In this document: piece after piece, positions 20,401 to 58,864 of the stretch
Numbering within the stretch: the stretch's first letter is position 1
Layout of the letters: every line of letters starts with the position of its first letter
From: Eledone cirrhosa
Lineage: Eukaryota
Length of the DNA stretch: 64,000 nucleotides
Reading direction: 5' to 3'
Assembly: GCA_964016885.1 (NCBI GenBank)
Contig: OZ024741.1
Location: 25,048,001-25,112,000, forward strand
Made by a program: the position numbers and the translations under genes
The notes under the pieces: model-generated
The model's input: only the letters and a program-made list of their open reading frames with translations
Database searches by the model: none
Told to the model about the DNA's origin: nothing

Positions 20401-20753
20401 TAAACAACATAGACAGTGTCTTCTATTAGAAATATGGTAATGAAAGGGTTAAACAACATAGACAGTGTCTTTTATTAGAAATATGGTAATGAAAGGGTTT
20501 AACAACATATACAGTATCTTTTATTAGAAATGTGGTAATGAAAGGGTTAAACAACATAGACAGTGTCTTTTATTAGAAATATGTTAATGAAAGGGTTAAA
20601 CAACATAGACAGTGTCTCTTATTAGAAATATGATAATGAAAGGGTTAAACAACATAGATAGTGTCTTTCATTAGAAATATGGTAATGAAAGGGTTAAACA
20701 ACATAGACAGTGTCTTTTATTAGAAATATGGTAATGAAAGGGTTAAAGAACAT
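5430..20753. repeat. Higher-order duplication in satellite: about 6.7-kb block repeated at an 8,623-bp offset
   Basis: Rare variants recur at exactly +8623: GTAACG 6625/15248, GAATGTG 7560/16183, 48-bp monomer 8791/17414, GGCAATGC 10590/19213, AAAGAAC 12125/20748. 8623 = 176x49-1. Block ends are approximate. Confidence 0.9.
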
Positions 20754-29700: not shown

Positions 29701-30649
29701 AACATATACAGTATCTTTTATTAGAAATGTGGTAATGAAAGGGTTAAACAACATAGACAGTGTCTTTTATTAGAAATATGTTAATGAAAGGGTTAAACAA
29801 CATAGACAGTGTCTCTTATTAGAAATATGATAATGAAAGGGTTAAACAACATAGATAGTGTCTTTCATTAGAAATATGGTAATGAAAGGGTTAAACAACA
29901 TAGGCAATGTCTTCTATTAGAAATATGATAATGAAAGGGTTAAACAACATAGACAGTTTCGTTTATTAGAAATATGGTAATGAAAGGGTTAAACAACATA
30001 GACAGTGTCTTTTATTAGAAATATGGTAATGAAAGGGTTTAACAACATAAACAGTATCTTTTATTAGAAATATGATAATGAAAGGGTTAAACAACATAGG
30101 CAGTGTCTTCTATTAGAAATATGATAATGAAAGGGTTAAGTAACATAGACAGTGTGTTTTATTAGAAATATGATAATGAAAGGGTTAAACAACATAGACA
30201 GTGTCTTTTATTAGAAATATGGTAATGAAAGTGTTAAACAACATAGACAGTGTCTTTTATTAGAAATGTGGTAATGAAAGTGTTAAACAAAATAGACAGT
30301 GTCATTTATTAGAAATGTGGTAATGAAAGGGTTAAACAACATAGACAGTCTCTTACATTAGAAATATGGTAATGAAAGGGTTAAACAACATAGACAGTGT
30401 CTTCTATTAGAAATATGGTAATGCAAGCGTTAAACAACATAGACAGTGTCTTTTATTAGAAATATGGTAATGAAAGGGTTAAACAACATAGACAGTGTCT
30501 TTTATTAGAAATATGGTAATGAAAGGGTTTAACAACATATACAGTATCTTTTATTAGAAATGTGGTAATGAAAGGGTTAAACAACATAGACAGTGTCTTT
30601 TATTAGAAATATGTTAATGAAAGGGTTAAACAACATAGACAGTGTCTTT

Positions 30650-33600
30650 TATTAGAAATATGATAATGAAAGGGTTAAACAACATAGATAGTGTCTTTCA
30701 TTAGAAATATGGTAATGAAAGGGTTAAACAACATAGGCAATGTCTTCTATTAGAAATATGATAATGAAAGGGTTAAACAACATAGACAGTTTCGTTTATT
30801 AGAAATATGGTAATGAAAGGTTTAAACAACATAGACAGTGTCTTTTATTAGAAATATGGTAATGAAAGGGTTAAACAACATAGAAAGTGTCTTTTATTAG
30901 AAATATGGTAATGAAAGGGTTAAACAACATAGATAGTGTGTTTTATTAGAAATATGGTAATGAAAGGGTTAAACAACATAGACAGTGTCTTTTATTAGAA
31001 ATATGGTAATGAAAGGGTTAAAGAACATAGACAGTGTCTTTTATTAGAAATATGGTAATGAAAGGGTTAAACAACATAGACAGTGTCTTTTATTAGAAAT
31101 ATGGTAATGAAAGGGTTAAACAACAGAGACAGTGTCTTTTATTAGAAATATGGTAATGAAAGGATTAAACAACATAGAGAGTGTCTTTTATTAGAAATAT
31201 GGTAATGAAAGGGTTAAACAACATAGACAGTGTCTTTTATTAGAAATATGGTAATGAAAGGGTTAAACAACTTAGACAGTGTCTTTTATTAGAAATATGG
31301 TAATGAAAGGGTTAAACAACATAGATAGTGTCTTTCATTAGAAATATGGTAATGAAAGGGTTAAACAACATAGGCAATGTCTTCTATTAGAAATATGATA
31401 ATGAAAGGGTTAAACAACATAGACTGTGTGTTTTATTAGAAATATGATAATGAAAGTGTTAAACAACATAGATAGTGTCTTTTATTAGAAATATGGTACT
31501 GAAAGGGTTAAACAACATAGATAGTGTCTTTTATTAGAAATATGGTAATGAAAGGGTTAAACAACATAGACAGTATCTTTTATTAGAAATGTGGTAATAA
31601 AAGGGTTAAACAACATAGACAGTGTCTTTTTTTAGAAATATGGTAATGAAAGGGTTAAACAACATAGACAGTGTCTTTTATTAGAAATGTGGTAATGAAA
31701 GGGTTTAACAACATATACAGTATCTTTTATTAGAAATGTGGTAATGAAAGGGTTAAACAACATAGACAGTGTCTTTTATTAGAAATATGTTAATGAAAGG
31801 GTTAAACAACATAGACAGTGTCTTTTATTAGAAATGTGGTAATGAAAGGGTTAAACAACATAGACAGTGTCTTTTATTACAAATATGGTAATGAAAGGGT
31901 TGAACAACATAGACAGTGTCTTTTATTAGAAATATGGTAATGAAAGGGTAAAACAACATAGACAGTGTCTTTTATTAGAAATATGGTAATGAAAGTGTTA
32001 AACAACATAGACAGTGTCTTTTATTAGAAATGTGGGAATGAAAGTTTTAAACAAAATAGACAGTGTCTTTTATTAGAAATGTGGTAATGAAAGGGTTAAA
32101 CAACATAGACAGTCTCTTACATTAGAAATATGGTAATGAAAGGGTTAAACAACATAGACAGTGTCTTTTATTAGAAATATGGTAATGCAAGCGTTAAACA
32201 ACATAGACAGTGTCTTCTATTAGAAATATGGTAATGAAAGGGTTAAACAACATAGACAGTGTCTTTTATTAGAAATATGGTAATGACAGGGTTTAACAAC
32301 ATATACAGTATCTTTTATTAGAAATGTGGTAATGAAAGGGTTAAACAACATAGACAGTGTCTTTTATTAGAAATATGTTAATGAAAGGGTTAAACAACAT
32401 AGACAGTGTCTCTTATTAGAAATATGATAATGAAAGGGTTAAACAACATAGATAGTGTCTTTCATTAGAAATATGGTAATGAAAGGGTTAAACAACATAG
32501 GCAATGTCTTCTATTAGAAATATGATAATGAAAGGGTTAAACAACATAGACAGTTTCGTTTATTAGAAATATGGTAATGAAAGGGTTAAACAACATAGAC
32601 AGTGTCTTTTATTAGAAATATGGTAATGAAAGGGTTTAACAACATAAACAGTATCTTTTATTAGAAATATGATAATGAAAGGGTTAAACAACATAGGCAG
32701 TGTCTTCTATTAGAAATATGATAATGAAAGGGTTAAGTAACATAGACAGTGTGTTTTATTAGAAATATGATAATGAAAGGGTTAAACAACATAGACAGTG
32801 TCTTTTATTAGAAATATGGTAATGAAAGTGTTAAACAACATAGACAGTGTCTTTTATTAGAAATGTGGTAATGAAAGTGTTAAACAAAATAGACAGTGTC
32901 TTTTATTAGAAATGTGGTAATGAAAGGGTTAAACAACATAGACAGTCTCTTACATTAGAAATATGGTAATGAAAGGGTTAAACAACATAGACAGTGTCTT
33001 CTATTAGAAATATGGTAATGCAAGCGTTAAACAACATAGACAGTGTCTTTTATTAGAAATATGGTAATGAAAGGGTTAAACAACATAGACAGTGTCTTTT
33101 ATTAGAAATATGGTAATGAAAGGGTTTAACAACATATACAGTATCTTTTATTAGAAATGTGGTAATGAAAGGGTTAAACAACATAGACAGTGTCTTTTAT
33201 TAGAAATATGTTAATGAAAGGGTTAAACAACATAGACAGTGTCTTTTATTAGAAATATGATAATGAAAGGGTTAAACAACATAGATAGTGTCTTTCATTA
33301 GAAATATGGTAATGAAAGGGTTAAACAACATAGGCAATGTCTTCTATTAGAAATATGATAATGAAAGGGTTAAACAACATAGACAGTTTCGTTTATTAGA
33401 AATATGGTAATGAAAGGTTTAAACAACATAGACAGTGTCTTTTATTAGAAATATGGTAATGAAAGGGTTAAACAACATAGAAAGTGTCTTTTATTAGAAA
33501 TATGGTAATGAAAGGGTTAAACAACATAGATAGTGTGTTTTATTAGAAATATGGTAATGAAAGGGTTAAACAACATAGACAGTGTCTTTTATTAGAAATA

Positions 33601-36600
33601 TGGTAATGAAAGGGTTAAAGAACATAGACAGTGTCTTTTATTAGAAATATGGTAATGAAAGGGTTAAACAACATAGACAGTGTCTTTTATTAGAAATATG
33701 GTAATGAAAGGGTTAAACAACAGAGACAGTGTCTTTTATTAGAAATATGGTAATGAAAGGATTAAACAACATAGAGAGTGTCTTTTATTAGAAATATGGT
33801 AATGAAAGGGTTAAACAACATAGACAGTGTCTTTTATTAGAAATATGGTAATGAAAGGGTTAAACAACATAGATAGTGTCTTTCATTAGAAATATGGTAA
33901 TGAAAGGGTTAAACAACATAGGCAATGTCTTCTATTAGAAATATGATAATGAAAGGGTTAAACAACATAGACAGTGTCTTTTATTAGAAGTAGGGTAATG
34001 AAAGGGTTAAACAACATAGTGTCTTCTATTAGAAATATGATAATGAAAGGGTTAAACAACATAGACAGTGTCTTTTATTAGAAATATGATAATGAAAGGG
34101 TTAAACACCATAGACAGTGTCTTTTATAGAAATATGGTAATGAAAGGGTTAAACAACATAGACAGTGTCTTTTATTAGATATATGGTAATGAAAGGGTTA
34201 AACAACATAGACTGTGTGTTTTATTAGAAATATGATAATGAAAGTGTTAAACAACATAGATAGTGTCTTTTATTAGAAATATGGTACTGAAAGGGTTAAA
34301 CAACATAGATAGTGTTTTTTATTAGAAATATGGTAATGAAAGGGTTAAACAACATAGACAGTATCTTTTATTAGAAATGTGGTAATAAAAGGGTTAAACA
34401 ACATAGACAGTGTCTTTTTTTAGAAATATGGTAATGAAAGGGTTAAACAACATAGACAGTGTCTTTTATTAGCAATATGGTAATGAAAGGGTTTAACAAC
34501 ATATACAGTATCTTTTATTAGAAATGTGGTAATGAAAGGGTTAAACAACATAGACAGTGTCTTTTATTAGAAATATGTTAATGAAAGGGTTAAACAACAT
34601 AGACAGTGTCTTTTATTAGAAATGTGGTAATGAAAGGGTTAAACAACATAGACAGTGTCTTTTATTACAAATATGGTAATGAAAGGGTTGAACAACATAG
34701 ACAGTGTCTTTTATTAGAAATATGGTAATGAAAGGGTAAAACAACATAGACAGTGTCTTTTATTAGAAATATGGTAATGAAAGTGTTAAACAACATAGAC
34801 AGTGTCTTTTATTAGAAATGTGGGAATGAAAGTGTTAAACAAAATAGACAGTGTCTTTTATTAGAAATGTGGTAATGAAAGGGTTAAACAACATAGACAG
34901 TCTCTTACATTAGAAATATGGTAATGAAAGGGTTAAACAACATAGACAGTGTCTTTTATTAGAAATATGGTAATGCAAGCGTTAAACAACATAGACAGTG
35001 TCTTCTATTAGAAATATGGTAATGAAAGGGTTAAACAACATAGACAGTGTCTTTTATTAGAAATATGATAATGAAAGGGTTAAACAACATAGATAGTGTC
35101 TTTCATTAGAAATATGGTAATGAAAGGGTTAAACAACATAGGCAATGTCTTCTATTAGAAATATGATAATGAAAGGGTTAAACAACATAGACAGTTTCGT
35201 TTATTAGAAATATGGTAATGAAAGGTTTAAACAACATAGACAGTGTCTTTTATTAGAAATATGGTAATGAAAGGGTTAAACAACATAGAAAGTGTCTTTT
35301 ATTAGAAATATGGTAATGAAAGGGTTAAACAACATAGATAGTGTGTTTTATTAGAAATATGGTAATGAAAGGGTTAAACAACATAGACAGTGTCTTTTAT
35401 TAGAAATATGGTAATGAAAGGGTTAAAGAACATAGACAGTGTCTTTTATTAGAAATATGGTAATGAAAGGGTTAAACAACATAGACAGTGTCTTTTATTA
35501 GAAATATGGTAATGAAAGGGTTAAACAACAGAGACAGTGTCTTTTATTAGAAATATGGTAATGAAAGGATTAAACAACATAGAGAGTGTCTTTTATTAGA
35601 AATATGGTAATGAAAGGGTTAAACAACATAGACAGTGTCTTTTATTAGAAATATGGTAATGAAAGGGTTAAACAACTTAGACAGTGTCTTTTATTAGAAA
35701 TATGGTAATGAAAGGGTTAAACAACATAGATAGTGTCTTTCATTAGAAATATGGTAATGAAAGGGTTAAACAACATAGGCAATGTCTTCTATTAGAAATA
35801 TGATAATGAAAGGGTTAAACAACATAGACTGTGTGTTTTATTAGAAATATGATAATGAAAGTGTTAAACAACATAGATAGTGTCTTTTATTAGAAATATG
35901 GTACTGAAAGGGTTAAACAACATAGATAGTGTCTTTTATTAGAAATATGGTAATGAAAGGGTTAAACAACATAGACAGTATCTTTTATTAGAAATGTGGT
36001 AATAAAAGGGTTAAACAACATAGACAGTGTCTTTTTTTAGAAATATGGTAATGAAAGGGTTAAACAACATAGACAGTGTCTTTTATTAGAAATGTGGTAA
36101 TGAAAGGGTTTAACAACATATACAGTATCTTTTATTAGAAATGTGGTAATGAAAGGGTTAAACAACATAGACAGTGTCTTTTATTAGAAATATGTTAATG
36201 AAAGGGTTAAACAACATAGACAGTGTCTTTTATTAGAAATGTGGTAATGAAAGGGTTAAACAACATAGACAGTGTCTTTTATTACAAATATGGTAATGAA
36301 AGGGTTGAACAACATAGACAGTGTCTTTTATTAGAAATATGGTAATGAAAGGGTAAAACAACATAGACAGTGTCTTTTATTAGAAATATGGTAATGAAAG
36401 TGTTAAACAACATAGACAGTGTCTTTTATTAGAAATGTGGGAATGAAAGTTTTAAACAAAATAGACAGTGTCTTTTATTAGAAATGTGGTAATGAAAGGG
36501 TTAAACAACATAGACAGTCTCTTACATTAGAAATATGGTAATGAAAGGGTTAAACAACATAGACAGTGTCTTTTATTAGAAATATGGTAATGCAAGCGTT

Positions 36601-39460
36601 AAACAACATAGACAGTGTCTTCTATTAGAAATATGGTAATGAAAGGGTTAAACAACATAGACAGTGTCTTTTATTAGAAATATGGTAATGACAGGGTTTA
36701 ACAACATATACAGTATCTTTTATTAGAAATGTGGTAATGAAAGGGTTAAACAACATAGACAGTGTCTTTTATTAGAAATATGTTAATGAAAGGGTTAAAC
36801 AACATAGACAGTGTCTCTTATTAGAAATATGATAATGAAAGGGTTAAACAACATAGATAGTGTCTTTCATTAGAAATATGGTAATGAAAGGGTTAAACAA
36901 CATAGGCAATGTCTTCTATTAGAAATATGATAATGAAAGGGTTAAACAACATAGACAGTTTCGTTTATTAGAAATATGGTAATGAAAGGGTTAAACAACA
37001 TAGACAGTGTCTTTTATTAGAAATATGGTAATGAAAGGGTTTAACAACATAAACAGTATCTTTTATTAGAAATATGATAATGAAAGGGTTAAACAACATA
37101 GGCAGTGTCTTCTATTAGAAATATGATAATGAAAGGGTTAAGTAACATAGACAGTGTGTTTTATTAGAAATATGATAATGAAAGGGTTAAACAACATAGA
37201 CAGTGTCTTTTATTAGAAATATGGTAATGAAAGTGTTAAACAACATAGACAGTGTCTTTTATTAGAAATGTGGTAATGAAAGTGTTAAACAAAATAGACA
37301 GTGTCTTTTATTAGAAATGTGGTAATGAAAGGGTTAAACAACATAGACAGTCTCTTACATTAGAAATATGGTAATGAAAGGGTTAAACAACATAGACAGT
37401 GTCTTCTATTAGAAATATGGTAATGCAAGCGTTAAACAACATAGACAGTGTCTTTTATTAGAAATATGGTAATGAAAGGGTTAAACAACATAGACAGTGT
37501 CTTTTATTAGAAATATGGTAATGAAAGGGTTTAACAACATATACAGTATCTTTTATTAGAAATGTGGTAATGAAAGGGTTAAACAACATAGACAGTGTCT
37601 TTTATTAGAAATATGTTAATGAAAGGGTTAAACAACATAGACAGTGTCTTTTATTAGAAATATGATAATGAAAGGGTTAAACAACATAGATAGTGTCTTT
37701 CATTAGAAATATGGTAATGAAAGGGTTAAACAACATAGGCAATGTCTTCTATTAGAAATATGATAATGAAAGGGTTAAACAACATAGACAGTTTCGTTTA
37801 TTAGAAATATGGTAATGAAAGGTTTAAACAACATAGACAGTGTCTTTTATTAGAAATATGGTAATGAAAGGGTTAAACAACATAGAAAGTGTCTTTTATT
37901 AGAAATATGGTAATGAAAGGGTTAAACAACATAGATAGTGTGTTTTATTAGAAATATGGTAATGAAAGGGTTAAACAACATAGACAGTGTCTTTTATTAG
38001 AAATATGGTAATGAAAGGGTTAAAGAACATAGACAGTGTCTTTTATTAGAAATATGGTAATGAAAGGGTTAAACAACATAGACAGTGTCTTTTATTAGAA
38101 ATATGGTAATGAAAGGGTTAAACAACAGAGACAGTGTCTTTTATTAGAAATATGGTAATGAAAGGATTAAACAACATAGAGAGTGTCTTTTATTAGAAAT
38201 ATGGTAATGAAAGGGTTAAACAACATAGACAGTGTCTTTTATTAGAAATATGGTAATGAAAGGGTTAAACAACATAGATAGTGTCTTTCATTAGAAATAT
38301 GGTAATGAAAGGGTTAAACAACATAGGCAATGTCTTCTATTAGAAATATGATAATGAAAGGGTTAAACAACATAGACAGTGTCTTTTATTAGAAGTAGGG
38401 TAATGAAAGGGTTAAACAACATAGTGTCTTCTATTAGAAATATGATAATGAAAGGGTTAAACAACATAGACAGTGTCTTTTATTAGAAATATGATAATGA
38501 AAGGGTTAAACACCATAGACAGTGTCTTTTATAGAAATATGGTAATGAAAGGGTTAAACAACATAGACAGTGTCTTTTATTAGATATATGGTAATGAAAG
38601 GGTTAAACAACATAGACTGTGTGTTTTATTAGAAATATGATAATGAAAGTGTTAAACAACATAGATAGTGTCTTTTATTAGAAATATGGTACTGAAAGGG
38701 TTAAACAACATAGATAGTGTTTTTTATTAGAAATATGGTAATGAAAGGGTTAAACAACATAGACAGTATCTTTTATTAGAAATGTGGTAATAAAAGGGTT
38801 AAACAACATAGACAGTGTCTTTTTTTAGAAATATGGTAATGAAAGGGTTAAACAACATAGACAGTGTCTTTTATTAGCAATATGGTAATGAAAGGGTTTA
38901 ACAACATATACAGTATCTTTTATTAGAAATGTGGTAATGAAAGGGTTAAACAACATAGACAGTGTCTTTTATTAGAAATATGTTAATGAAAGGGTTAAAC
39001 AACATAGACAGTGTCTTTTATTAGAAATGTGGTAATGAAAGGGTTAAACAACATAGACAGTGTCTTTTATTACAAATATGGTAATGAAAGGGTTGAACAA
39101 CATAGACAGTGTCTTTTATTAGAAATATGGTAATGAAAGGGTAAAACAACATAGACAGTGTCTTTTATTAGAAATATGGTAATGAAAGTGTTAAACAACA
39201 TAGACAGTGTCTTTTATTAGAAATGTGGGAATGAAAGTGTTAAACAAAATAGACAGTGTCTTTTATTAGAAATGTGGTAATGAAAGGGTTAAACAACATA
39301 GACAGTCTCTTACATTAGAAATATGGTAATGAAAGGGTTAAACAACATAGACAGTGTCTTTTATTAGAAATATGGTAATGCAAGCGTTAAACAACATAGA
39401 CAGTGTCTTCTATTAGAAATATGGTAATGAAAGGGTTAAACAACATAGACAGTGTCTTTT
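30650..39460. repeat. Higher-order tandem duplication in satellite, 4,405-bp unit (90 monomers)
   Basis: Rare variants recur at +4405: ATGACAGG 32287/36692, AGAAGTAGG 33990/38395, TAGCAAT 34473/38878. 4405 = 90x49-5 (one 45-bp and one 48-bp monomer). Ends are approximate. Confidence 0.88.
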
Positions 39461-40921
39461 ATTAGAAATATGGTAATGAAAGGGTTTAACAACATATACA
39501 GTATCTTTTATTAGAAATGTGGTAATGAAAGGGTTAAACAACATAGACAGTGTCTTTTATTAGAAATATGTTAATGAAAGGGTTAAACAACATAGACAGT
39601 GTCTCTTATTAGAAATATGATAATGAAAGGGTTAAACAACATAGATAGTGTCTTTCATTAGAAATATGGTAATGAAAGGGTTAAACAACATAGGCAATGT
39701 CTTCTATTAGAAATATGATAATGAAAGGGTTAAACAACATAGACAGTTTCGTTTATTAGAAATATGGTAATGAAAGGGTTAAACAACATAGACAGTGTCT
39801 TTTATTAGAAATATGGTAATGAAAGGGTTAAACAACATAGACAGTATCTTTTATTAGAAATATGGTAATGAAAGGGTTTAACAACATAGACAGTGTCTTT
39901 TATTAGAAATATGGTAATGAAAGGGTTTAACAACATAAACAGTATCTTTTATTAGAAATATGATAATGAAAGGGTTAAACAACATAGGCAGTGTCTTCTA
40001 TTAGAAATATGATAATGAAAGGGTTAAGTAACATAGACAGTGTGTTTTATTAGAAATATGATAATGAAAGGGTTAAACAACATAGACAGTGTCTTTTATT
40101 AGAAATATGGTAATGAAAGTGTTAAACAACATAGACAGTGTCTTTTATTAGAAATGTGGTAATGAAAGTGTTAAACAAAATAGACAGTGTCTTTTATTAG
40201 AAATGTGGTAATGAAAGGGTTAAACAACATAGACAGTGTCTTTTATTAGAAATATGGTAATGAAAGGGTTTAACAACATATACAGTATCTTTTATTAGAA
40301 ATGTGGTAATGAAAGGGTTAAACAACATAGACAGTCTCTTACATTAGAAATATGGTAATGAAAGGCTTAAACAACATAGACAGTGTCTTCTATTAGAAAT
40401 ATGGTAATGCAAGCGTTAAACAACATAGACAGTGTCTTTTATTAGAAATATGGTAATGAAAGGGTTAAACAACATAGACAGTGTCTTTTATTAGAAATAT
40501 GGTAATGAAAGGGTTTAACAACATATACAGTATCTTTTATTAGAAATGTGGTAATGAAAGGGTTAAACAACATAGACAGTGTCTTTTATTAGAAATATGT
40601 TAATGAAAGGGTTAAACAACATAGACAGTGTCTTTTATTAGAAATATGATAATGAAAGGGTTAAACAACATAGATAGTGTCTTTCATTAGAAATATGGTA
40701 ATGAAAGGGTTAAACAACATAGGCAATGTCTTCTATTAGAAATATGATAATGAAAGGGTTAAACAACATAGACAGTTTCGTTTATTAGAAATATGGTAAT
40801 GAAAGGGTTAAACAACATAGACAGTGTCTTTTATTAGAAATATGGTAATGAAAGGGTTAAACAACATAGAAAGTGTCTTTTATTAGAAATATGGTAATGA
40901 AAGGGTTAAACAACATAGATA

Positions 40922-41185
40922 TATTTCTTTTATTTGCCACTAGGGCATCAAAAGTGGGACAAGTACAAAGGGGGGAGTTTACACAAAAAGGCGTCCTCAA
41001 TAAGGAGGAGGCAATAACAAAATATAAAAATAAAATAAGATATAACAAAAAATAAAATTTTTAACAAAATCCTCAATAGAGAGGAGGCGCCTTGGGGGGT
41101 CGCACACACCCCCGAAAAAAGTGTGCAACCCTTCTCCTCAGGAGCACAGAGAAGGGGTGCTCCCTTGGTCTTTCATCTTCCTCAC
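40922..41185 (-). other. 3'UTR of LINE copy 1 (structured and U-rich; AATAAA at 40929-40934; no poly(A) tail)
   Basis: Lies between the ORF2 stop (41186) and the satellite junction. The sense strand ends ...GGCAAATAAAAGAAATA. The same sequence occurs in copy 2 (56765-57027) with a 1-bp deletion. Confidence 0.88.
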
Positions 41186-44100
41186 CTATAGTCTGATGTA
41201 GAGTGAAGGCCCATTCACACGGGCCATTCTCGCCACTTTCACCCATCTTTCATAGAAACGGCTGGGGTGCAGCACCTCTCTCTCCATCCTGATCCTTCTT
41301 CCGAAATGATATCGGAAGAAACGGACCAGTTGTTGGCCAGAGAGAAAGGTGCCCGACCTCAGTCCTTTCAGACGCGTCCACCATACAACCTCTTTCGCCA
41401 TGGCTATTACGCACAGAAACACCGCCTCTGCTTCATCTTTGAAGGGGGGAGGCGGCTTGATCATTACAATAGACTCGGTGGTCAACCGGATCGGTCCCAC
41501 CCTTGACAGCAGTTGTTCGACATAGCCCCACAGATCGGCTACGCCCGAGCAGTGTACTAATGCGTGTGCAACGGTTTCCTCGTCGCACACGCATCTGGGA
41601 CAGATCTTTTTGGCGGGGTCCCTACCCGGGCGCCCGTGTCTGTAGAGCCTTTCTCGAACGGGTAAAGCCCCTCGGTAGCACTGCCAGGCCAGGGACTTCT
41701 GGAAGTTGTCCATAGGTCCCGGGCTGAATGTCCTACCGAACAGGCTGGCCAGTTCGTCCTCCTCCATGTCTAGGGCTTCTCCGAGGGCGTCGTCGCACCT
41801 GCTGCGTACCAGCCCTCTATAGAATGTTGCGGTGGAGTCTCCACTGATAACCGGATCCGCCTGCCAGAGGGCGGTGAGCGCCTGGGCACACTCAGTGTGC
41901 CAGGCGCCCAGTTTTCTCGGTCTTTGCTTGACCCAGGATTGCAGCTCGGTGAGTGAGACGAGTCTGGGAAAGGTTCGTCTCACAAACGAGGCCCACACCG
42001 GTTGTCCGGTGAGGAATACGTAGAGGTGCCGTAGCCTTAATGCGTGTTTACGCATCATTAGCCACGGCATCCCCAGCCCTCCTTTCGAAGGGTGTTGACA
42101 GCAGATGGATCTCCTCACCATAGGAGCCCGCCTCTTCCAAAGGAATTGGAAGAGCGCGCGCTCCATCTTGGTGAGGGTTTCCCTTGGGCAGGGCACTACG
42201 GTCAGGCGGTAGTAGATGACGGACGCTATGTAGGTGTTCGCCACCTCCGCCCGGCCTTTCAGGGATAGTTTGCAACTGGCCCACTTCTGGGTCAGTGCAA
42301 ACACCCTGTTCGTAACCTCCGCCCAGTTTTTCTCCACCTGGAGGTCCGGTCCGAACCAGACCCCGAGCAACTTCACCGGGCCCTCCGTCCAGCGTCCGAC
42401 GACGCTATCGGAGGGCATCGGTCTGCCCCTTCACGTGCCGAGTTGCAAACCGATCGACTTGTCCCGGTTCAGCTTAGCCCCTGTGAACTTTTCGTACTCC
42501 TCCAGTAAGGTGCCGACCGCCTCGATTTCGGAGGCCGTCGACACCATTACTGTCATGTCATCGGCGTAGGCCGACACCGCTTTCCGCAATCCCGGTTCCA
42601 AAGGGATGCCCTGCAACAACTCCAACTTCCGCAGTAGTGGCTCGAGAGTCAACACATACAGAAGGGAGGAGAGAGGGCACCCTTGTCGGATGGACCGCGC
42701 GATTTTGAACGGCTCCGAGAGGTAGCCGTTCACCTTGACCCTAGAGCAGATGCGGCTGCTGTGCATAGCAGTGATCCAGCCCCTGAAAACGGGTCCGAAG
42801 CCTGCCGCCGCTAGCACCGCATCCAGGTAACCATGGTCGACCCTATCGAACGCCTTAGATTGATCCAAGTTGATCAGAGCCCCACCAAAGCCGGGTTCGT
42901 TCCCAACCCTCTCTATGATGTATCGCATGAGGTGGAGGTTGTCATGGATGGACCTGGACGGGATAGCGCATGTCTGCGCATCTCCCACCAGGTTGCCCAC
43001 GACAAGCGCCAACCTCTTTGCTAGCACCTTGGCCAAAATCTGTAACTCTGTATTTAGCAGTGTTATGGGCCTGAAGTTACTTATTTCGTCCCCCTTGTTC
43101 TCGTCCTTCCTCACTAGCGTGACTACGCCCTTGGTCACAGTACAGGGAATTCTCCCGTTCTGTTGCCAGTTGCAGTAGACCGCCTCGAGGAGATCGGGGA
43201 ACAAGTCCGGCATAGCTAGATATAATTCGTAAGGAAGACCATCGAGACCCGGGGATTTGCGTTTGCCGCATTGGCTCAGCACGTCCTCTATCTCAGCGGC
43301 CGAAATCGGCTCTTCGCAGGACTTCGCCTCCCTGTCCGAGAGGCGCGGCAGGCCGTCGAGGTATGGACCGAAGTCCACGTTCCCAACCGGCTCCCCGCCC
43401 CTCCCGAACAGTCGGGCAAAGTGCCTTTGAAAGGCCTCACACATCTGCTTAGGCTCAAGAATCGCCCGTCCATCCAGGTCTCGCAAAGACCGGATGGTGG
43501 ATTTAGTTCCACTGTTGGCCTCTGTCACGCGGGCCCAGCTAACAGCTTTGGTCCCCTCGTTCCCTAGAGCACGTATTTTACTTCGGACAACGCAGCCTTC
43601 GTGCTTCGCGTCGAAAAACTGGCTCAAAGCCGTTCTCGACGCTAGCACTCTGGCCACGTCGCCGCTTCTAATTGCCTCTTCTACTCTATCTATTAGCTCC
43701 CTTTCCTTCCTATTCCTATCCGCAGCTAGAACCTTACTAAATTCTATCGAGACTACTCTAATCTCTCTCTTTAGAGATACCCACCACCTGCTGTTGACGA
43801 TCGCTCCAGTCAACCGTTCCTTAACTAACGTACTAATCCGATTCCTGTAGGCTCTACTTGCCGGCAAGGACAAGTTGAGCTTCCAGTAACCGGGGCCCTG
43901 TCTATGAGTTCTGTCAAGGTTGACCATGCAGGTCACTAATTTGTGGTCTGAATAGCCAACAATGCGCATTTTTGGACAACTTAAAAAGTCCTTATCCTTA
44001 ATTCTAACTAAGAACCTATCTAGGTACGACCTAGATGATCCGCTACGATTTGCCCAAGTCCAGGTTGGCGCAGTCGGAAAATCTAGTCGATATCTATCGG

Positions 44101-44623
44101 CCAGGTCAAATCGACCGATTAACCCTTTGAGGCTATTACACCCCTCTCTATCGGGGCAGGCCCCTACGTAGTCCCAGCGTGCATCTAGGATACCATTCCA
44201 GTCCCCCACTAATAGCAAGGAGCGGGACGTCCCTAGAAAAGTCTCCAGACGATGGAAGAAGTCCGGCCGCATTGACCCGAAAGGGCCGTAGGCGGCTACC
44301 AACCTAAACGCTCCGCCTTTACCACTGCCAAGGTCCAGAACCACTAGTCGACCCTCCGGGTCCAAATGTACCATCTGTGTTGCGAGACCCAGATGTTTTT
44401 GCAGCAGAACGACAACTCCACCCCCACCTCCGGGCTGACAGAGAGATGCGTGCATCTCAAAGTCATCAAAGGTGGGGGCCAGCTGTCGCACGTTGCTGAT
44501 CCGGGCCTCGCAAATAACCATCACATCTATACGTTGTGACCTGAGGTCATTTAGAAGCATTGCTTGCTTCCAAGTTGAGCCCAGGCCACGCGCATTTAAA
44601 CAGCCTACTCTTAGCATAGCCAT
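41186..44623 (-). pseudogene. LINE ORF2 polyprotein (APE endonuclease, reverse transcriptase, C-terminal CCHC), about 1,145 aa, broken by one in-frame TGA at 42431-42433
   Basis: Track ORFs 42431..44647 and 41186..42418 are in the same frame. EN motifs: CLNARGL, LVGDWN, YLDRFL, SDHK. RT motifs: FRPITLLN, LDQSKAFDRV, RQGCPLS, YADD, KLLGV. Zn motif: CPRC...H...C. First ATG at 44623 in an ACCAACATGG context. Copy 2 has TGG at the stop position. Confidence 0.93.
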
Positions 44624-44647
44624 GTTGGTGGTGAAGAGAAAAGGCAC

Positions 44648-46426
44648 TTACCTCTCTGCGTCCCGGGTATCGGGCTGCACAATTTCCATTAGGGTGGGGG
44701 ATGGGTTGTTGGGTGGGGTGGTGGTTTGTGGAAGTGTGGGGGCATCAGTGTGTTGTGTGGTTGGGGAGCTTGGAGTTGTGAGGGTGTTTGGGGAGGGGGT
44801 GGGATAGTTTTTTAGGAGGACGCGGTTAATGGGCCCGACGCAGGGGGGACCCACGTCCTCTTTAAAATTGTTTTTTAAAGTTTTATAGGTGTCCTGTGGG
44901 GCCTTAATCATTTTGAGGTGGGGGAAATCCCCTGCCTGGGTGAAGTTAGGCCCTTGTGTTTTTATTAGATTGTTGTTGTACACAATGTTTAACAGTTTTT
45001 TGTTTCTTGTATTTATGTATGTGTATGCATGTTTTTGTTTTTGTGTGGTGTTTTTTGTTTGCTGTTGTGAGCTCTTTTGTGTTGGTGTCAGTGTTATGTT
45101 TTGGGGAGGGTTTTTTTTCATTTGTGTGTCTGAGGTGTGTTTTCTTTTTTTTCTTTTGATTGTGTGGAAGTGCTCCTCCTCGTCTGACGACGAACTAGGG
45201 TCATCTTCCGCGTTGGAGGGGAGGGGTATATTTTCGGGTTGTGTTTGCGGTACGGGTGTTTTGGAAATTGTTTTTGTTTTTTGAGTGGAGGGGATGGGTT
45301 GGACATTGTTTTGTTTTGGTTTGAGCTGTGGTGGTTGTTTTTGTAGTGGTAGTTGTGGTGATTGTGTTGGTTGTGCAGCTGTTGGTGGTGTAGGCAGGAT
45401 TGGGGTTTTCTTATTAAGTTGGGGACAGACAGCCCTCAGGTGACCTCTGGTTCCGCAGAGGTAACACGAGGGCCGTCTACCCTCAACGGTAATGTTGATG
45501 AAGGTTAGATCATCCAGTATGACGCGTTCAGGGATCTGGGCGATCCTTTCGGGCCTCATTTGAACTACAAGTTCGAGGCTCGTTCCACTGAACGCGTCAC
45601 CCGATGCCTTTCCCATGGACACCAGCATGTCATCCTCCAGGTCCAGAAAACCTGTCAAAACCCACCATATGTCCATAATCGGCAGGATGGTGTGGATTTT
45701 TATTTTTTGTGTTCTTCTACCCATGTACGTAGGGTAGAAGGTGTATGCGGTGGATGTGATTGGTTTGATGGACAGTTTCACTGCTGTGTCCCTGTCCTTC
45801 ATGAGAATGGATAGACTCCCGTAGAGTCTATCCTTCTGAATGAAGGTGATGTCCTTCATGACGTCTTTTAAAACCAGCTCTATCTCGCTCTGTGATGGTT
45901 GAGCTGGTTTTTTACTTTTGTTCGAGATTGTCCTAAACATGACCGTGTTTAGGAGTCTCTGGCTTTTTAGTTCCGGGGGGGAATGGATTGTGAATGAACC
46001 ATTTTCCCCGTACACTATATATTTTTTCGCATCCGCCAGTAGCTCCTTCGCTTTTGTTATATCTACTGGCAGATAGTCGAGGGTTTTCCTTGTCGTCTCG
46101 GCGAAGGAGAAATTTTGTTTGTTTGTGTTGTTGTTGTCGTTGGTGGTGTTGTTGTTATCATTGTTGTTGTTGTCACCGTTATTGGTCTTGTTGTTGTTAT
46201 TGTTATTGGTGTTGTTTTCGTCCGTCGCATTGTTGTTGTTGCTGTTGCCGCTGGTTCTTTGAGTTGTTGCCATGGCAACGTCAAGTTGTCGGTTAACAGG
46301 TGGAGAGAATTCTTCCTCTGGCTGACCTTTCTTCTTGACCTCTGCTACTGTGACAGTGGCAGGGGGAAGCTGTAAGTTCATCTTCCCCTTTCCTCCTTCG
46401 AATTTTGGTGAAGAAGCTTCGGCCAT
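44648..46426 (-). CDS. LINE ORF1 gag-like nucleic-acid-binding protein, 592 aa
   Basis: Uninterrupted ATG-to-TAA ORF upstream of ORF2. It has a CX2CX4HX4C knuckle (CYLCGTRGHLRAVC), a basic NLS-like KRKKRK after an acidic/Ser patch, an Asn-rich N-terminus and a Pro/Gln/Thr-rich C-terminus. Confidence 0.9.
   Translation of the reverse strand: MAEASSPKFEGGKGKMNLQLPPATVTVAEVKKKGQPEEEFSPPVNRQLDVAMATTQRTSGNSNNNNATDENNTNNNNNNKTNNGDNNNNDNNNTTNDNNNTNKQNFSFAETTRKTLDYLPVDITKAKELLADAKKYIVYGENGSFTIHSPPELKSQRLLNTVMFRTISNKSKKPAQPSQSEIELVLKDVMKDITFIQKDRLYGSLSILMKDRDTAVKLSIKPITSTAYTFYPTYMGRRTQKIKIHTILPIMDIWWVLTGFLDLEDDMLVSMGKASGDAFSGTSLELVVQMRPERIAQIPERVILDDLTFINITVEGRRPSCYLCGTRGHLRAVCPQLNKKTPILPTPPTAAQPTQSPQLPLQKQPPQLKPKQNNVQPIPSTQKTKTISKTPVPQTQPENIPLPSNAEDDPSSSSDEEEHFHTIKRKKRKHTSDTQMKKNPPQNITLTPTQKSSQQQTKNTTQKQKHAYTYINTRNKKLLNIVYNNNLIKTQGPNFTQAGDFPHLKMIKAPQDTYKTLKNNFKEDVGPPCVGPINRVLLKNYPTPSPNTLTTPSSPTTQHTDAPTLPQTTTPPNNPSPTLMEIVQPDTRDAER
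46126..46240 (-). repeat. Degenerate (AAC)n trinucleotide tract encoding poly-Asn/Thr in ORF1
   Basis: Plus strand shows TTG/GTT runs; translation NSNNNNATDENNTNNNNNNKTNNGDNNNNDNNNTTNDNNNTN. Confidence 0.85.
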
Positions 46427-46640
46427 TTAAAAAAATATTGACTTTTCAACAAGAAAAAACTTTTTTTTTGTTTAACTATTTCGCCTAAAGGCGTAGAATA
46501 TTTTGAGAGACTGACCAGATCAAAGTTTGACCTGGCAGTCCCTCTACAAAATGGTACAAAAATTAAAGTTATCAGACAAGAATTTCTATAGAAATTTAAA
46601 CAGAACTTACTCAGCAGGTTATACGCGTGTGTCCATCCCA
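46427..46640 (-). promoter_or_regulatory. 5'UTR of LINE copy 1; putative internal promoter region
   Basis: Non-satellite, non-coding sequence upstream of the ORF1 ATG, containing inverted repeats. Promoter function is inferred only from general LINE biology. Confidence 0.55.
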
Positions 46641-46642
46641 GA

Positions 46643-46658
46643 GATAGATAGATAGATA
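46643..46658. repeat. (GATA)4 microsatellite at the 5' junction of LINE copy 1
   Basis: ...CATCCCAGA GATA GATA GATA GATA TACAGTATCTTTT... read directly. Confidence 0.95.
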
Positions 46659-49600
46659 TACAGTATCTTTTATTAGAAATGTGGTAATAAAAGGGTTAAA
46701 CAACATAGACAGTGTCTTTTATTAGAAATATGTTAATGAAAGGGTTAAACAACATAGACAGTGTCTTTTATTAGAAATATGGTAATGAAAGGGTTAAACA
46801 ACTTAGACAGTGTCTTTTATTAAAAATATGGTAATGAAAGGGTTAAACAACATAGATAGTGTCTTTCATTAGAAATATGGTAATGAAAGGGTTAAACAAC
46901 ATAGGCAATGTCTTCTATTAGAAATATGATAATGAAAGGGTTAAATAACATAGACAGTTTCGTTTATTAGAAATATGGTAATGAAAGGGTTAAACAACAT
47001 AGACAGTGTCTTTTATTACAAATATGGTAATGAAAGGGTTGAACAACATAGACAGTGTCTTTTATTAGAAATATGGTAATGAAAGTGTTAAACAACATAG
47101 ACAGTGTCTTTTATTAGAAATATGGTAATGAAAGTGTTAAACAACATAGACAGTGTCTTTTATTAGAAATGTGGTAATGAAAGTGTTAAACAAAATAGAC
47201 AGTGTCTTTTATTAGAAATATGGTAATGAAAGGGTTTAGCAACATATACAGTATCTTTTATTAGAAATGTGGTAATGAAAGGGTTAAACAACATAGACAG
47301 TGTCTTTTATTAGAAATATGTTAATGAAAGGGTTAAACAACATAGACAGTGTCTTTTATTAGAAATATGATAATGAAAGGGTTAAACAACATAGATAGTG
47401 TCTTTCATTAGAAATATGGTAATGAAAGGGTTAAACAACATAGGCAATGTCTTCTATTAGAAATATGTTAATGAAAGGGTTAAACAACATAGACAGTTTC
47501 GTTTATTAGAAATATGGTAATGAAAGGGTTAAACAACATAGACAGTGTCTTTTATTAGAAATAGGGTAATGAAAGGGTTAAACAACATAGTGTCTTCTAT
47601 TAGAAATATGATAATGAAAGGGTTAAACAACATAGACAGTGTCTTTTATTAGAAATATGGTAATGAAAGGGTTAAACAACATAGACAGTGTGTTTTATTA
47701 GAAATATGATAATGAAAGTGTTAAACAACATAGATAGTGTCTTTTATTAGAAATATGGTACTGAAAGGGTTAAACAACATAGATAGTGTCTTTTATTAGA
47801 AATATGGTAATGAAAGGGTTAAACAACATAGACAGTATCTTTTATTAGAAATGTGGTAATAAAAGGGTTAAACAACATAGACAGTGTCTTTTTTTAGAAA
47901 TATGGTAATGAAAGGGTTAAACAACATAGACAGTGTCTTTTATTAGAAATATGGTAATGAAAGGGTTTAACAACATATACAGTATCTTTTATTAGAAATG
48001 TGGTAATGAAAGGGTTAAACAACATAGACAGTGTCTTTTATTAGAAATATGTTAATGAAAGGGTTAAACAACATAGACAGTGTCTTTTATTAGAAATATG
48101 ATAATGAAAGGGTTAAACAACATAGATAGTGTCTTTCATTAGAAATATGGTAATGAAAGGGTTAAACAACATAGGCAATGTCTTCTATTAGAAATATGAT
48201 AATGAAAGGGTTAAATAACATAGACAGTTTCGTTTATTAGAAATATGGTAATGAAAGGGTTAAACAACATAGACAGTGTTTTTTATTAGAAATATGGTAA
48301 TGAAAGGGTTGAAAAACATAGACAGTGTCTTTTATTAGAAATATGGTAATGAAAGGGTTAAACAACATAGACAGTGTCTTTTATTAGAAATATGGTAATG
48401 AAAGTGTTAAACAACATAGACAGTGTCTTTTATTAGAAATGTGGTAATGAAAGTGTTAAACAAAATAGACAGTGTCTTTTATTAGAAATGTGGTAATGAA
48501 AGGGTTAAACAACATAGACAGTCTCTTACATTAGAAATATGGTAATGAAAGGGTTAAACAACATAGACAGTGTCTTTTATTAGAAATATGGTAATGCAAG
48601 CGTTAAACAACATAGACAGTGTCTTTTATTAGAAATATGGTAATGAAAGGGTTAAACAACATAGACAGTGTCTTTTATTAGAAATATGGTAATGAAAGGG
48701 TTTAACAACATATACAGTATCTTTTATTAGAAATGTGGTAATGAAAGGGTTAAACAACATAGACAGTGTCTTTTATTAGAAATATGTTAATGAAAGGTTT
48801 AAACAACATAGACAGTGTCTTTTATTAGAAATATGATAATGAAAGGGTTAAACAACATAGATAGTGTCTTTCATTAGAAATATGGTAATGAAAGGGTTAA
48901 ACAACATAGACAGTGTTTTTTATTAGAAATATGGTAATGAAAGTGTTAAACAACATAGACAGTATCTTTTATTAGAAATATGATAATGAAAGGGTTAAGT
49001 AACATAGACAGTGTGTTTTATTAGAAATATGGTAATGAAAGGGTTAAACAACATAGACAGTCTCTTACATTAGAAATATGGTAATGAAAGGGTTAAACAA
49101 CATAGACAGTATCTTTTATTAGAAATGTGCTAATGAAAGGGTTAAACAACATAGACAGTGTCTTTTTTTAGAAATATGGTAATGAAAGGATTAAACAACA
49201 TAGACAGTGTCTTTTATTAGAAATATGGTAATGAAAGGGTTTAACAACATAAACAGTGTGTATTATTAGAAATGTGGTAATGAAAGGGTTAAACAACTTA
49301 GACAGTGTCTTTTATTAGAAATATAGTAATGAAAGGGTTAAACAACTTAGACAGTGTCTTTTATTAGAAATATGGTAATGAAAGGCTTACACAACATAGA
49401 CAGTGTCTTTTATTAGAAATATGGTAATGAAAGGGTTAAACAACATAGACAGTGTCTTTTATTAGAAATATGGTAATGAAAGGTTTAAACAACATAGACA
49501 GTGTCTTTTATTAGAAATATGATAATGAAAGGGTTAAATAACATAGACAGTTTCGTTTATTAGAAATATGGTAATGAAAGGGTTAAACAAAATAGACAGT

Positions 49601-52600
49601 GTCTTTTATTAGAAATGTGGTAATGAAAGGGTTAAACAACATAGACAGTCTCTTACATTAGAAATATGGTAATGAAAGGGTTAAACAACATAGACAGTGT
49701 CTTTTATTAGAAATATGGTAATGCAAGCGTTAAACAACATAGACAGTGTCTTTTATTAGAAATATGGTAATGAAAGGGTTAAACAAGATAGACAGTGTCT
49801 TTTATTAGAAATATGGTAATGAAAGGGTTTAACAACATATACAGTATCTTTTATTAGAAATGTGGTAATGAAAGGGTTAAACAACATAGACAGTGTCTTT
49901 TATTAGAAATATGTTAATGAAATGGTTAAACAACATAGACAGTGTCTTTTATTAGAAATATGATAATGAAAGGGTTAAACAACATAGATAGTGTCTTTCA
50001 TTAGAAATATGGTAATGAAAGGGTTAAACAACATAGGCAATGTCTTCTATTAGAAATATGATAATGAAAGGGTTAAACAACATAGACAGTTTCGTTTATT
50101 ACAAATATGGTAATGAAAGGGTTAAACAACATAGACAGTGTCTTTTATTAGAAATATGGTAATGAAAGTGTTAAACAACATAGACAGTATCTTTTATTAG
50201 ATATGTGGTAATGAAAGGGTTAAACAACATAGACAGTGTCTTTTTTTAGAAATATGGTAATGAAAGGATTAAACAACATAGACAGTGTCTTTTATTAGAA
50301 ATATGGTAATGAAAGGGTTTAACAACATAAACAGTATCTTTTATTAGAAATATGATAATGAAAGGGTTAAGTAACATAGACAGTGTGTTTTATTAGAAAT
50401 ATGGTAATGAAAGGGTTAAACAACATAGACAGTCTCTTACATTAGAAATATGGTAATGAAAGGGTTAAACAACATAGACAGTATCTTTTATTAGAAATGT
50501 GGTAATGAAAGGGTTAAACAACATAGACAGTGTCTTTTATTAGAAATATGGTAATGAAAGGGTTAAACAACTTAGACAGTGTCTTTTATTAGAAATATGG
50601 TAATGAAAGGGTTACACAACATAGACAGTGTCTTTTATTAGAAATATGGTAATGAAAGGGTTACACAACATAGACAGTGTCTTTTATTAGAAATATGGTA
50701 ATGAAAGGGTTAAACAACATAGACAGTGTCTTTTATTAGAAATATAGTAATGAAAGGGTTAAACAACATAGACAGTGTCTTTTATTAGAAATATGATAAT
50801 GAAAGGGTTAAACAACATAGACAGTGTCTTTTATTAGAAATATGGTAATGAAAGGGTTAAACAACATAGATAGTGTTTTTTATTAGAAATATAGTAATGA
50901 AAGGGTTAAACAACATAGACAGTGTCTTTTATTAGAAATATGGTAATGAAAGGGTTAAACAACATAGACAGTGTCTTTTATTAGAAATATGGTAATGAAA
51001 GGGTTAAACAACATAGACAGTTTCTTTTATTAGAAATATGGTAATGAAAGGGTTAAACAACATAGACAGTGTCTTTTATTAGAAATATGATAATGAAAGG
51101 GTTAAACAACATAGACAGTGTCTTTTATTAGAAATATGGTAATGAAAGGGTTAAACAACATAGACAGTGTCTTTTATTAGAAATATGGTAATGAAAGGGT
51201 TAAACAACATAGACAGTGTCTTTTATTAGAAATATGGTAATGAAAGGGTTAAACAACATAGACAGTGTCTTTTATTAGAAATATGGTAATGAAAGGGTTA
51301 AACAACATAGACAGTGTCTTTTATTAGAAATATGGTAATGAAAGGGTTAAACAACATAGACAGTGTCTTTTATTAGAAATATGGTAATGAAAGGGTTAAA
51401 CAACATAGACAGTGTCTTTTATTAGAAATAGGGTAATGAAAGGGTTAAACAACATAGACAGGGTTTTTTATTAGAAATATGATAATGAAAGGGTTAAACA
51501 ACATAGACAGTGTCTTTTATTAGAAATATGGTAATGAAAGGATTAAACAACATAGACAGTGTCTTTTATTAGAAATATGGTAATGAAAGGGTTAAACAAC
51601 ATAGACAGTGTCTTTTATTAGAAATATGGTAATGAAAGAGTTAAACAACATAGACAGTGTCTTTTATTAGAAATATGGTAATGAAAGGGTTAAACAACAT
51701 AGATAGTGTCTTTTATTAGAAATATGGTAATGAAAGGGTTAAACAACATAGACAGTGTCTTTTATTAGAAATATGGTAATGAGAGGTTTAAACAACATAG
51801 ACAGTGTCTTTTATTAGAAATATGGTAATGAAAGGGTTAAACAACATAGACAGTGTCTTTTATTAGAAATATGGTAATGAAAGGGTTAAACAACATAGAC
51901 AGTGTCTTTTATTAGAAATATGATAATGAAAGGGTTAAACAACATAGACAGTGTCTTTTATTAGAAATATGGTAATGAAAGGGTTAAACAACATAGATAG
52001 TGTTTTTTATTAGAAATATAGTAATGAAAGGGTTAAACAACATAGACAGTGTCTTTTATTAGAAATATGGTAATGAAAGGGTTAAACAACATAGACAGTG
52101 TCTTTTATTTGAAATATGGTAATGAAAGGGTTAAACAACATAGACAGTGTCTTTTATTAGAAATATGGTAATGAAAGGGTTAAACAACATAGACAGTGTC
52201 TTTTATTAGAAATATGATAATGAAAGGGTTAAACAACATAGACAGTGTCTTTTATTAGAAATATGGTAATGAAAGGGTTAAACAACATAGACAGTGTCTT
52301 TTATTAGAAATATGATAATGAAAGGGTTAAACAACATAGACAGTGTCTTTTATTAGAAATATGGTAATGAAAGGGTTAAACAACATAGACAGTGTCTTTT
52401 ATTAGAAATATGGTAATGAAAGGGTTAAACAACATAGACAGTGTCTTTTATTAGAAATATGGTAATGAAAGGGTTAAACAACATACTGTCTTTTATTAGA
52501 AATATGATAATGAAAGGGTTAAACAACATAGACAGTGTCTTTTATTAGAAATATGGTAATGAAAGGGTTAAACAACATAGACAGTGTCTTTTATTAGAAA

Positions 52601-55600: not shown

Positions 55601-56764
55601 AGAAATATGGTAATGAAAGGGTTAAACAACATAGACAGTGTCTTTTATTAGAAATATGGTAATGAAAGTGTTAAACAACATAGACAGTGTCTTTTATTAG
55701 AAATATGATAATGAAAGGGTTAAACAACATAGACAGTGTCTTTTATTAGAAATATGGTAATGAAAGGGTTAAACAACATAGATAGTATCTTTTATTAGAA
55801 ATATGGTAATGAAAGGGTTAAACAACATAGACAGTATCTTTTATTAGAAATATGGTAATGAAAGGGTTAAACAACATAGACAGTGTCTTTTATTAGAAAT
55901 ATGGTAATGAAAGGGTTAAACAACATAGACAGTATCTTTTATTAGAAATATGGTAATGAAAGGGTTAAACAACATAGACAGTGTCTTTTATTAGAAATAT
56001 GGTAATGAAAGGATTAAACAACATAGACAGTGTCTTTTATTAGAAATATGGTAATGAAAGGGTTAAACAACATAGACAGTGTCTTTTATTAGAAATATGG
56101 TAATGAAAGAGTTAAACAACATAGACAGTGTCTTTTATTAGAAATATGGTAATGAAAGGGTTAAACAACATAGACAGTGTCTTTTATTAGAAATATGGTA
56201 ATGAAAGGGTTAAACAACATAGACAGTGTCTTTTATTAGAAATATGGTAATGAAAGGGTTAAACAACATAGACAGTGTCTTTTATTAGAAATATGGTAAT
56301 GAAAGGGTTAAACAACATAGATAGTGTCTTTTATTAGAAATATGATAATGAAAGGATTACACAACATAGACAGTGTCTTTTATTAGATATAGGGTAATGA
56401 AAGTGTTAAACAACATAGACAGTGTTTTTTATTAGAAATATGGTAATGAAAGGGTTAAACAACATAGACAGTGTCTTTTATTAGAAATATGGTAATGAAA
56501 GGATTACACAACATAGACAGTATCTTTTATTAGAAATATGGTAATGAAAATGTTAAACAACATAGACAGTGTCTTTTATTAGAAATATGGTAATGAAAGT
56601 GTTAAACAACATAGGCAGTGTCTTTTATTAGAAATATGATAATGAAAGTGTTAAACAACATAGACAGTATCTTTTATTAGAAATATGGTAATGAAAGGGT
56701 TAAACAACATAGACAGTGTCTTTTATTAGAAATATGGTAATGAAAGGTTTAAACAACATAGATA
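46659..56764. repeat. 49-bp satellite array, middle block (about 206 monomers)
   Basis: Same monomer and orientation as the left block. Includes a 1,025-bp local duplication (CACAGAC at 53701 and 54726) and 45-bp and 28-bp deletion monomers. Confidence 0.99.
56753..56764 (+). repeat. Left target-site duplication of LINE copy 2 (ACAACATAGATA)
   Basis: Identical 12-mer at 58853-58864. Removing the element plus one copy restores an intact 49-bp monomer. Confidence 0.85.
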
Positions 56765-58852: not shown

Positions 58853-58864
58853 ACAACATAGATA
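58853..58864 (+). repeat. Right target-site duplication of LINE copy 2 (ACAACATAGATA)
   Basis: The first A is also the next element base (copy 1 reads GACAAGCGCC-A-ACC), so the TSD is either 12 bp or 11 bp plus 1-bp microhomology. Confidence 0.85.

Follow-up and report, generated by a model that had tools for sequence, protein, structure and literature searches.

Satellite GATA monomers as probable look-alike sites for a (GATA)n-homing LINE family in an octopod

Can a single base of a satellite monomer decide where a retrotransposon lands, and does it then also set how many copies an array accumulates? The question is raised by a 64,000-nucleotide stretch of Eledone cirrhosa DNA (the window), an AT-rich 49-bp satellite that is broken by two GC-rich LINE inserts on the minus strand (copies 1 and 2, Table 1). 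A sequence-only reading had claimed that both inserts chose a minority monomer with GATA in place of the consensus GACA. We counted 1,149 anchored monomers in the window, 106 with GATA (104 empty and two occupied) and 865 with GACA, which gives a GATA share of 10.9% of all GATA and GACA monomers; the commonest form, ATAGACAG, is found in 861 of the 1,149, and ATAGATAG in 104 in addition to the two occupied ones. The claimed choice is borne out, for copy 1 by context only; two hits have P about 0.003-0.012, according to whether the GATA share of the whole array or that of the window is used.

The window lies within a 375-kb array (G000:C2:24825767-25200882) that was read as a whole: of its 7,349 monomers 5,876 are GACA and 321 GATA, a GATA share of 5.2%. 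Five interruptions are present, namely four copies of the same LINE family (copies 1 and 2 as well as two further copies, A and B) and one unrelated insertion at another position. The unrelated insertion (L147, G000:C2:24828244-24830755, 2.5 kb), situated between the A and the T of TTAGAAAT, serves as a control: other elements use another monomer position. Its ends, CTAG and TC, resemble those of a Helitron.

Arrays of the 49-bp satellite are found toward both ends of one 416-Mb contig and in opposite orientation (G000:C2, 24.83-25.20 Mb on the plus strand, 412.09-412.11 and 414.115-414.165 Mb on the minus strand), with GATA shares that range from 0.5% to about 11-15% across the domains; of the minus-strand arrays about 70 kb were read directly and the remainder was covered through patterns only. 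A different reverse-transcriptase element with an (ATG)n-type repeat end (L182, about 1400-3900) interrupts the minus-strand array at 412.09 Mb. The idea that GATA monomers are scars of failed insertions was rejected as unnecessary, as an element-free array has 11% GATA. Sampled words of window positions 40800-41400 occur at 0.59-0.84 in runs labelled as five different organisms, which may reflect close relatives, transfer or mixed samples; no RNA run was listed among them.

Table 1. Features of the window, in window positions.
Feature	Position	Strand	Remark
49-bp satellite, left part, with higher-order variant patterns	1..40921	+	part of the 375-kb array
Empty GATA monomer, repeat context as in the left flank of copy 1	7181..7194	+	also at 15804, 26970, 30929, 33526, 35334, 37931
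ATAGATA, left half of the probable GATA target monomer of copy 1, T at 40920	40915..40921	+	target judged from repeat context; no duplication
Copy 1, full-length L1/Tx1-type LINE, 3' end without poly(A)	40922..46642	-	
AATAAA, 7 bases before the 3' junction of copy 1	40929..40934	-	read in sequence
Copy 1 ORF2: APE endonuclease, reverse transcriptase, zinc-binding domain; premature stop at 42431-42433	41186..44623	-	
ORF2 residues 190-198, aligned to the betaB6-betaB5 hairpin of the L1 endonuclease	44030..44056	-	weak alignment, E=0.038
Copy 1 ORF1, 592 aa, one CCHC knuckle motif	44648..46426	-	motif read in sequence, no Pfam match
3.7-kb block (5' 0.93 kb of copy 1 and 2.7 kb of satellite), repeated without difference at copy B	45711..49385	+	partner around G000:C2:25031500-25035180
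(GATA)4 beside the 5' end of copy 1, of non-satellite origin; last ATA common to the next monomer	46643..46658	+	
Satellite between copies 1 and 2, begins inside a CATATACAG-type monomer	46659..56752	+	
Left copy of the 12-bp target duplication of copy 2	56753..56764	+	
Copy 2, 5'-truncated (2.09 kb) relative of copy 1, same family	56765..58852	-	
Right (5'-side) copy of the copy 2 duplication, reads GATA	58853..58864	+	direct proof of a GATA target
Satellite, right part	58865..64000	+	

The two copies in the window differ in how far their targets can be read. The 12-bp duplication around copy 2 is ACAACATAGATA, with a first A that doubles as an element base, and its right copy continues into GTGTC as the earlier reading had stated, so the target was a GATA monomer. 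In front of copy 1 the window reads ATAGATA, and the element begins directly after it. Comparison of both flanks of copy 1 showed no target duplication: its 5' side is CCCAGA-(GATA)4-TACAGTATC, in which TACAGTATC belongs to the right-hand portion of another type of monomer, CATATACAG; the target of copy 1 can therefore be judged only from the left context. That context is a GAAAG monomer, a type said to precede a GAT monomer elsewhere, and this is indeed the case at 7181, 15804 and 30929. Among the twelve GAAAG monomers besides that of copy 1, the eight of identical sequence are followed by GAT(A/T)GTGTG and the four that carry an extra variant are not. A CATATACAG monomer as the target of copy 1 was rejected: this type has an upstream T that is missing from the left flank of copy 1.

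Genome-wide pattern searches identified four 3' junctions of the family in the 49-bp satellite, all joined at CATAGATA, and no further junctions at this satellite position, neither for the family nor for relatives with the same end motif. When other elements were sought at the GAYA position, 38 pattern matches were obtained; 30 were read, and the only ones in the satellite were the four known copies. Copy A (G000:C2:25005855, 1.7 kb) is flanked by a target duplication of 16 bp that reads GATA on the 5' side, and copy B, 62 kb upstream of copy 1, is full-length and has no target duplication. GATA is thus found on the 5' side in both readable duplications (12 bp in copy 2, 16 bp in copy A), and as copies 2 and A are both 5'-truncated, a (GATA)n leader could not have supplied this T. 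For copies 1 and B we infer GATA targets from their surroundings: empty sites that match the left eight monomers with at most one mismatch continue with GAT in 6/6 cases for copy 1 and in 14/14 for copy B. Looser context matches are mixed (6/8 for copy 1; 23 GAT versus 7 GAC, 23/30, at three mismatches for copy B), and the left flank of copy A has no close match elsewhere. The claim that the T is target-derived agrees with the duplications (2/2 GATA) and with the contexts (4/4). We also looked for 5'-side duplications that read CATAGACA at the frequency of GACA monomers, which would speak against this origin of the T, and found GATA in 2/2.

The element bodies of the four array copies differ by 7-13 substitutions, the same as unrelated copies elsewhere, and they were therefore counted as four insertions. 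At the window share of 10.9%, the chance of hitting GATA is P=0.012 for two copies and 1.4e-4 for four; at the array share of 5.2% the values fall to P=0.0027 (the two copies with verified duplications) and 7e-6 (four copies). The GATA preference has a 95% lower bound of 5-fold (two copies) to 16-fold (four) on the array share, and of 2.4-fold for the two verified copies on the window share.

The satellite holds only a small part of the family. An exact-pattern search of the whole genome found 758 exact 3' ends, and 74 junctions were read, all from the first contig and picked by an exact 33-mer, a selection that hides irregular ends. Of these junctions 65 end in GATA, six in TATA, two in AATA and one in GGTA: position -2 is T in 74/74 and C in 0/74. 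At least two GATA units are present at 55 of the 74 and at least three at 44, and poly(A) is absent at all 74. A LINE counts as microsatellite-specific if one sequence type makes up >20% of its flanks (available text of PMC4494074), and here the fraction is 55/74; a satellite-specific LINE would have >20% of its copies in a satellite, and here the fraction is 4/758. The GATA-seeking family does not have its home in the satellite, where its copies are a minor by-catch.

Among 73 loci, those with sufficiently unique flanks (L015, L018, L058, L084, L087, L104 and L105) repeat the same end in the 5'-side copy. This includes ends other than GATA (L058, L084), and the tail therefore does not simply write GATA. 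L104 uses the identical ATAGATA/GTG site outside any satellite. Both L104 and L105 are full-length and have a (GATA)n leader in addition to the target duplication, which accounts for the 5' (GATA)4 tract of copy 1. The two (G000:C1:295.83 and 295.92 Mb) occupy one site of near-identical flanks 83 kb apart and belong to different subfamilies; the pair may reflect repeated insertion at one site or conversion. For L007-L009, L019, L027, L068 and L078 the target was the GATA tract beside the 5' end of an earlier copy; stacks are built in this way, with the element itself renewing its target.

A GATA monomer agrees with (GATA)n over seven bases before the nick and a GACA monomer is mismatched two bases from the end; with an alternative nick after CATA, a GACA monomer has three matching bases. 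TTAGATA/T, a second site that the array offers at about 370 places, has no insertion (P=0.05); six matched bases, or a site without the G after the nick, thus seem not to suffice. We consider it probable, at roughly 85%, that a young (GATA)n-homing LINE used the GATA monomers of the satellite as look-alike sites, with the C-to-T change giving seven matched bases (ATAGATA).

By its structure and insertion habit the family appears to be Tx1-like, a label that is in part our presumption. ORF1 has a single CX2CX4HX4C motif, read in the translation (Pfam gave none), and we take this CCHC zinc knuckle to be a mark of the Tx1 clade. The 1,145-amino-acid frame of ORF2 is open in 16 of 19 other full-length copies and matches the Pfam domains Exo_endo_phos, RVT_1 and zf-RVT (the last with 27.2 bits versus a cut-off of 27.5), a set that its atlas neighbours share. 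ORF2 is nearer to L1 ORF2p than to R2 (E=3e-19): among solved structures human L1 ORF2p matches best (PDB 8sxt and others; E=4e-48 over residues 8-857). Among named proteins one of Argonauta hians is closest (63% identity), and named Tx1 proteins were not among the matches of the protein and structure searches. Traits of the L1 group are present in the target duplications of 12 and 16 bp, absent in copies 1 and B, and in the frequent 5' truncation, which affects many copies of the family.

A sister LINE at the left edge of the array (G000:C2:24821154-24825547; L146, L211), with 86% DNA identity to the GATA-seeking family, has the other target. It has 203 exact 3' ends genome-wide, and 25 of the 30 junctions that were read end in GACA plus one base; the 1,145-amino-acid ORF2 is open in 8 of 20 fetched copies. 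Sister copies form head-to-tail stacks in (GACA)n; a stack at C3:358.73-358.78 Mb has nine units. In the sampled loci, GATA stands before most other related types of 3' end, and GACA is therefore probably the derived target. The endonucleases of the two families differ at 29 of 235 positions (88% identical), and three differences (A191S, R193N and S196Q) fall within the nine residues that align, weakly, to the L1 hairpin; divergence of the hairpin alone is not significant (3/9 versus a background of 12%, P=0.09). The 12,066 GACA monomers of the satellite contain no sister insertion versus about 25 expected at the same per-site rate. ATAGACA agrees with (GACA)n over five bases only, and the absence of the sister from GACA monomers fits the need for a longer match. 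The sequence-only reading had proposed that the C-to-T change makes the monomer a targetable mimic of (GATA)n. This holds in so far as T is needed at -2 (74/74), but an eight-letter mimic, ATAGAYAG, is not the whole rule, given 0/12,066 for the sister.

How the base might be read can be outlined as follows. The endonuclease would nick the plus strand at ATAGATA/G and the freed 3' end would prime reverse transcription (target-primed), probably aided by pairing with (UAUC)n at the 3' end of the RNA. With AATAAA 7 bases from the end, the usual cleavage distance predicts a transcript that ends in target-derived (UAUC)n. The duplication would arise from a second nick, placed 12-16 bases further left as the lengths of the duplications suggest; with C at -2, recognition or priming, or both, would be impaired. 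We think that endonuclease and priming probably both contribute to the reading of the base. Full-length copies 1 and B could have lost their duplications because the (GATA)n leader of the cDNA joined another monomer. According to the available text of PMC3812793, the mechanism of microsatellite targeting by APE-type LINEs is not well understood.

In a variant of this explanation the choice is made mainly at priming: nicking would be loose, and extension would be limited to ends able to pair with (UAUC)n, as in the snap-velcro model of L1. We regard this as a serious possibility, if somewhat short of even odds. It accords with the 74/74 junctions that have no poly(A) and the AATAAA so close to the end, with the agreement with GATAGATA that extends seven bases upstream, and with the GACA monomer being mismatched two bases from the primer end; moreover, L1 needs about four matched terminal bases (available text of PMC3649969), and annealing of the RNA to the target has been proposed for R1Bm and SART1, with insertion abolished by one change in a repeat base (excerpts of PMC7265360). 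However, by our reading of the flanks, the TATA-ending L058 and L021 are joined in the standard register though a 2-base shift would pair better, and the sister family differs in the endonuclease hairpin too, besides the flank. The accessible part of PMC1950540 reports that the betaB6-betaB5 hairpin influences nicking by the endonuclease and that the Tx1L endonuclease by itself nicks almost exclusively its own site, the latter a further point against a choice made mainly at priming. One full-length copy is inserted at AAATATA/GT in a related 48-bp satellite that has no GATA monomer (G000:C1:108.81-108.83 Mb; L054, L055), with a 14-base target deletion and a 3-base microhomology in place of a duplication; the GATA variant is thus not required for a satellite to be hit.

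The second part of the question concerns insertion load. The GATA variant decides where within the monomer the family lands, and it probably raises the insertion rate. The further claim that satellite variation controls retrotransposon load is not supported: the satellite has 4/758 copies (0.5%), and the mirror prediction for the sister is not borne out. The 49-bp satellite family carries four copies versus 0.16 predicted from its length. Of about 509 satellite GATA sites four carry an insertion, and of some 4,900 other CATAGATAGT sites at most six do (P=0.01); satellite sites are hit more often, and position or array dynamics therefore add something. The part of the array in which the four copies are found is rich in GATA (local share 0.074-0.095 versus 0.043; P=0.006-0.03 versus uniform monomers), and versus uniform GATA sites their clustering has P=0.05-0.23. 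A 50-kb array near the other contig end, with 113 GATA among 1,008 monomers, has no insertion versus 0.9 expected and is thus uninformative.

A wider scenario, which we put forward very tentatively and consider rather unlikely as a whole, is that the two sister families, both active and with 88% identical endonucleases, were split onto (GATA)n and (GACA)n by the hairpin changes together with the RNA tails that each carries itself; one polymorphic satellite base would gate entry of one of the families, so that array turnover, by spreading or removing the variant, would change the frequency of invasion and of the later reshuffling through recombination between inserted copies. More doubtful still is the reading in which the GATA monomer share sets the retrotransposon load of an array and homogenisation acts as a defence or a sink. 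The confinement of all four copies to the GATA-rich part and their excess over the length-predicted 0.16 would favour it, but targeting per site alone yields the clustering, the second array with its 11% GATA holds none, and the satellite has 0.5% of the copies in one genome. If true, satellite sequence governing transposon load would matter for satellite evolution; the case rests on four events in one array.

It is improbable that the four copies are one or two insertions that were multiplied via array duplication or assembly error, so that the statistics are pseudo-replicated. The 3.7-kb block is identical in copies 1 and B, and the left flank of copy B and the right flank of copy A match a single empty site, a sign of shuffled flanks; against this, the bodies are 7-13 substitutions apart, copy B is less close to copy 1 than are four copies from another contig, the duplications (12 and 16 bp) and the points of truncation are unequal and there are four distinct left contexts. 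Copies 1 and B have 13 differences in 4.8 kb and none in the adjoining 3.7 kb (P=5e-5), a distribution that led us to reject copy B as simply duplicated from copy 1 or as a 5' transduction of it, and the shared block includes one private allele. Over its whole length copy 1 groups with L056, L059, L104 and L110, which copy B joins at the 5' end alone. The 3.7-kb identity and the shuffled flanks are probably due to recombination between copies, through which copy 1 or copy B would later have acquired its 5' end from the other; the identity may also stem from conversion or assembly error.

A T written by the tail of the element or arisen by later mutation, with GACA consensus monomers as the real targets, is highly improbable and largely refuted: target and tail are inseparable from the left junctions alone, 2/4 copies have no duplication and C-to-T is a common change, but GATA is on the 5' side in both duplications, all readable contexts have empty twins with GAT, and 9/74 junctions have ends other than GATA.

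With its thousands of near-identical sites that differ at one base, the locus is a clean in-genome control. The GACA sister adds two closely related enzymes whose targets differ by one base, so that cutting versus priming can be tested directly, and this sister pair is the part worth an experiment. For microsatellite-specific LINEs of the Tx1 clade, the reference is reportedly Kojima and Fujiwara 2004. Known examples are Kibi in (TC)n, Koshi in (TTC)n and the crocodilian Tx1-1_Crp group in (TTCC)n/(TTTC)n (available texts of PMC4494074 and PMC3812793); like these, the family described here has two ORFs, an APE endonuclease with a reverse transcriptase, and oriented insertion in one repeat unit, whereas its target units are (GATA)n, and (GACA)n for the sister, its host is an octopod and it uses single look-alike sites inside a satellite. 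Satellites ('Sat') are listed as Tx1 targets in the Fig. 3 legend of PMC4494074, and the families concerned share with ours a Tx1-type element at a fixed monomer position; in contrast to them, the GATA-seeking family has 4/758 copies in the satellite and in the minority variant only. In SART1Bm and R1Bm of the R1 clade, too, one base matters (TTAGG to TTCGG abolishes insertion) and a short annealing of RNA and target has been proposed, but clade and target are different, the evidence comes from plasmid assays where ours is natural polymorphism, and SART1 keeps a poly(A) junction, which the GATA-seeking family does not have (excerpts of PMC7265360). The annotation of Octopus vulgaris lists 13 recently active L1-Tx1 families and, in its available part, gives no targets (PMC13282606). 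The literature searched, mostly papers in open access, yielded no GATA- or GACA-specific Tx1 element and no variant-gated satellite insertion. In human L1, cutting and priming both shape the choice of site and the hairpin loop affects nicking (available parts of PMC3649969 and PMC1950540); human L1 differs in its weak TTTT/A preference and its poly(A) tail. The targeting described here is of a known kind, and its target unit appears to be new.
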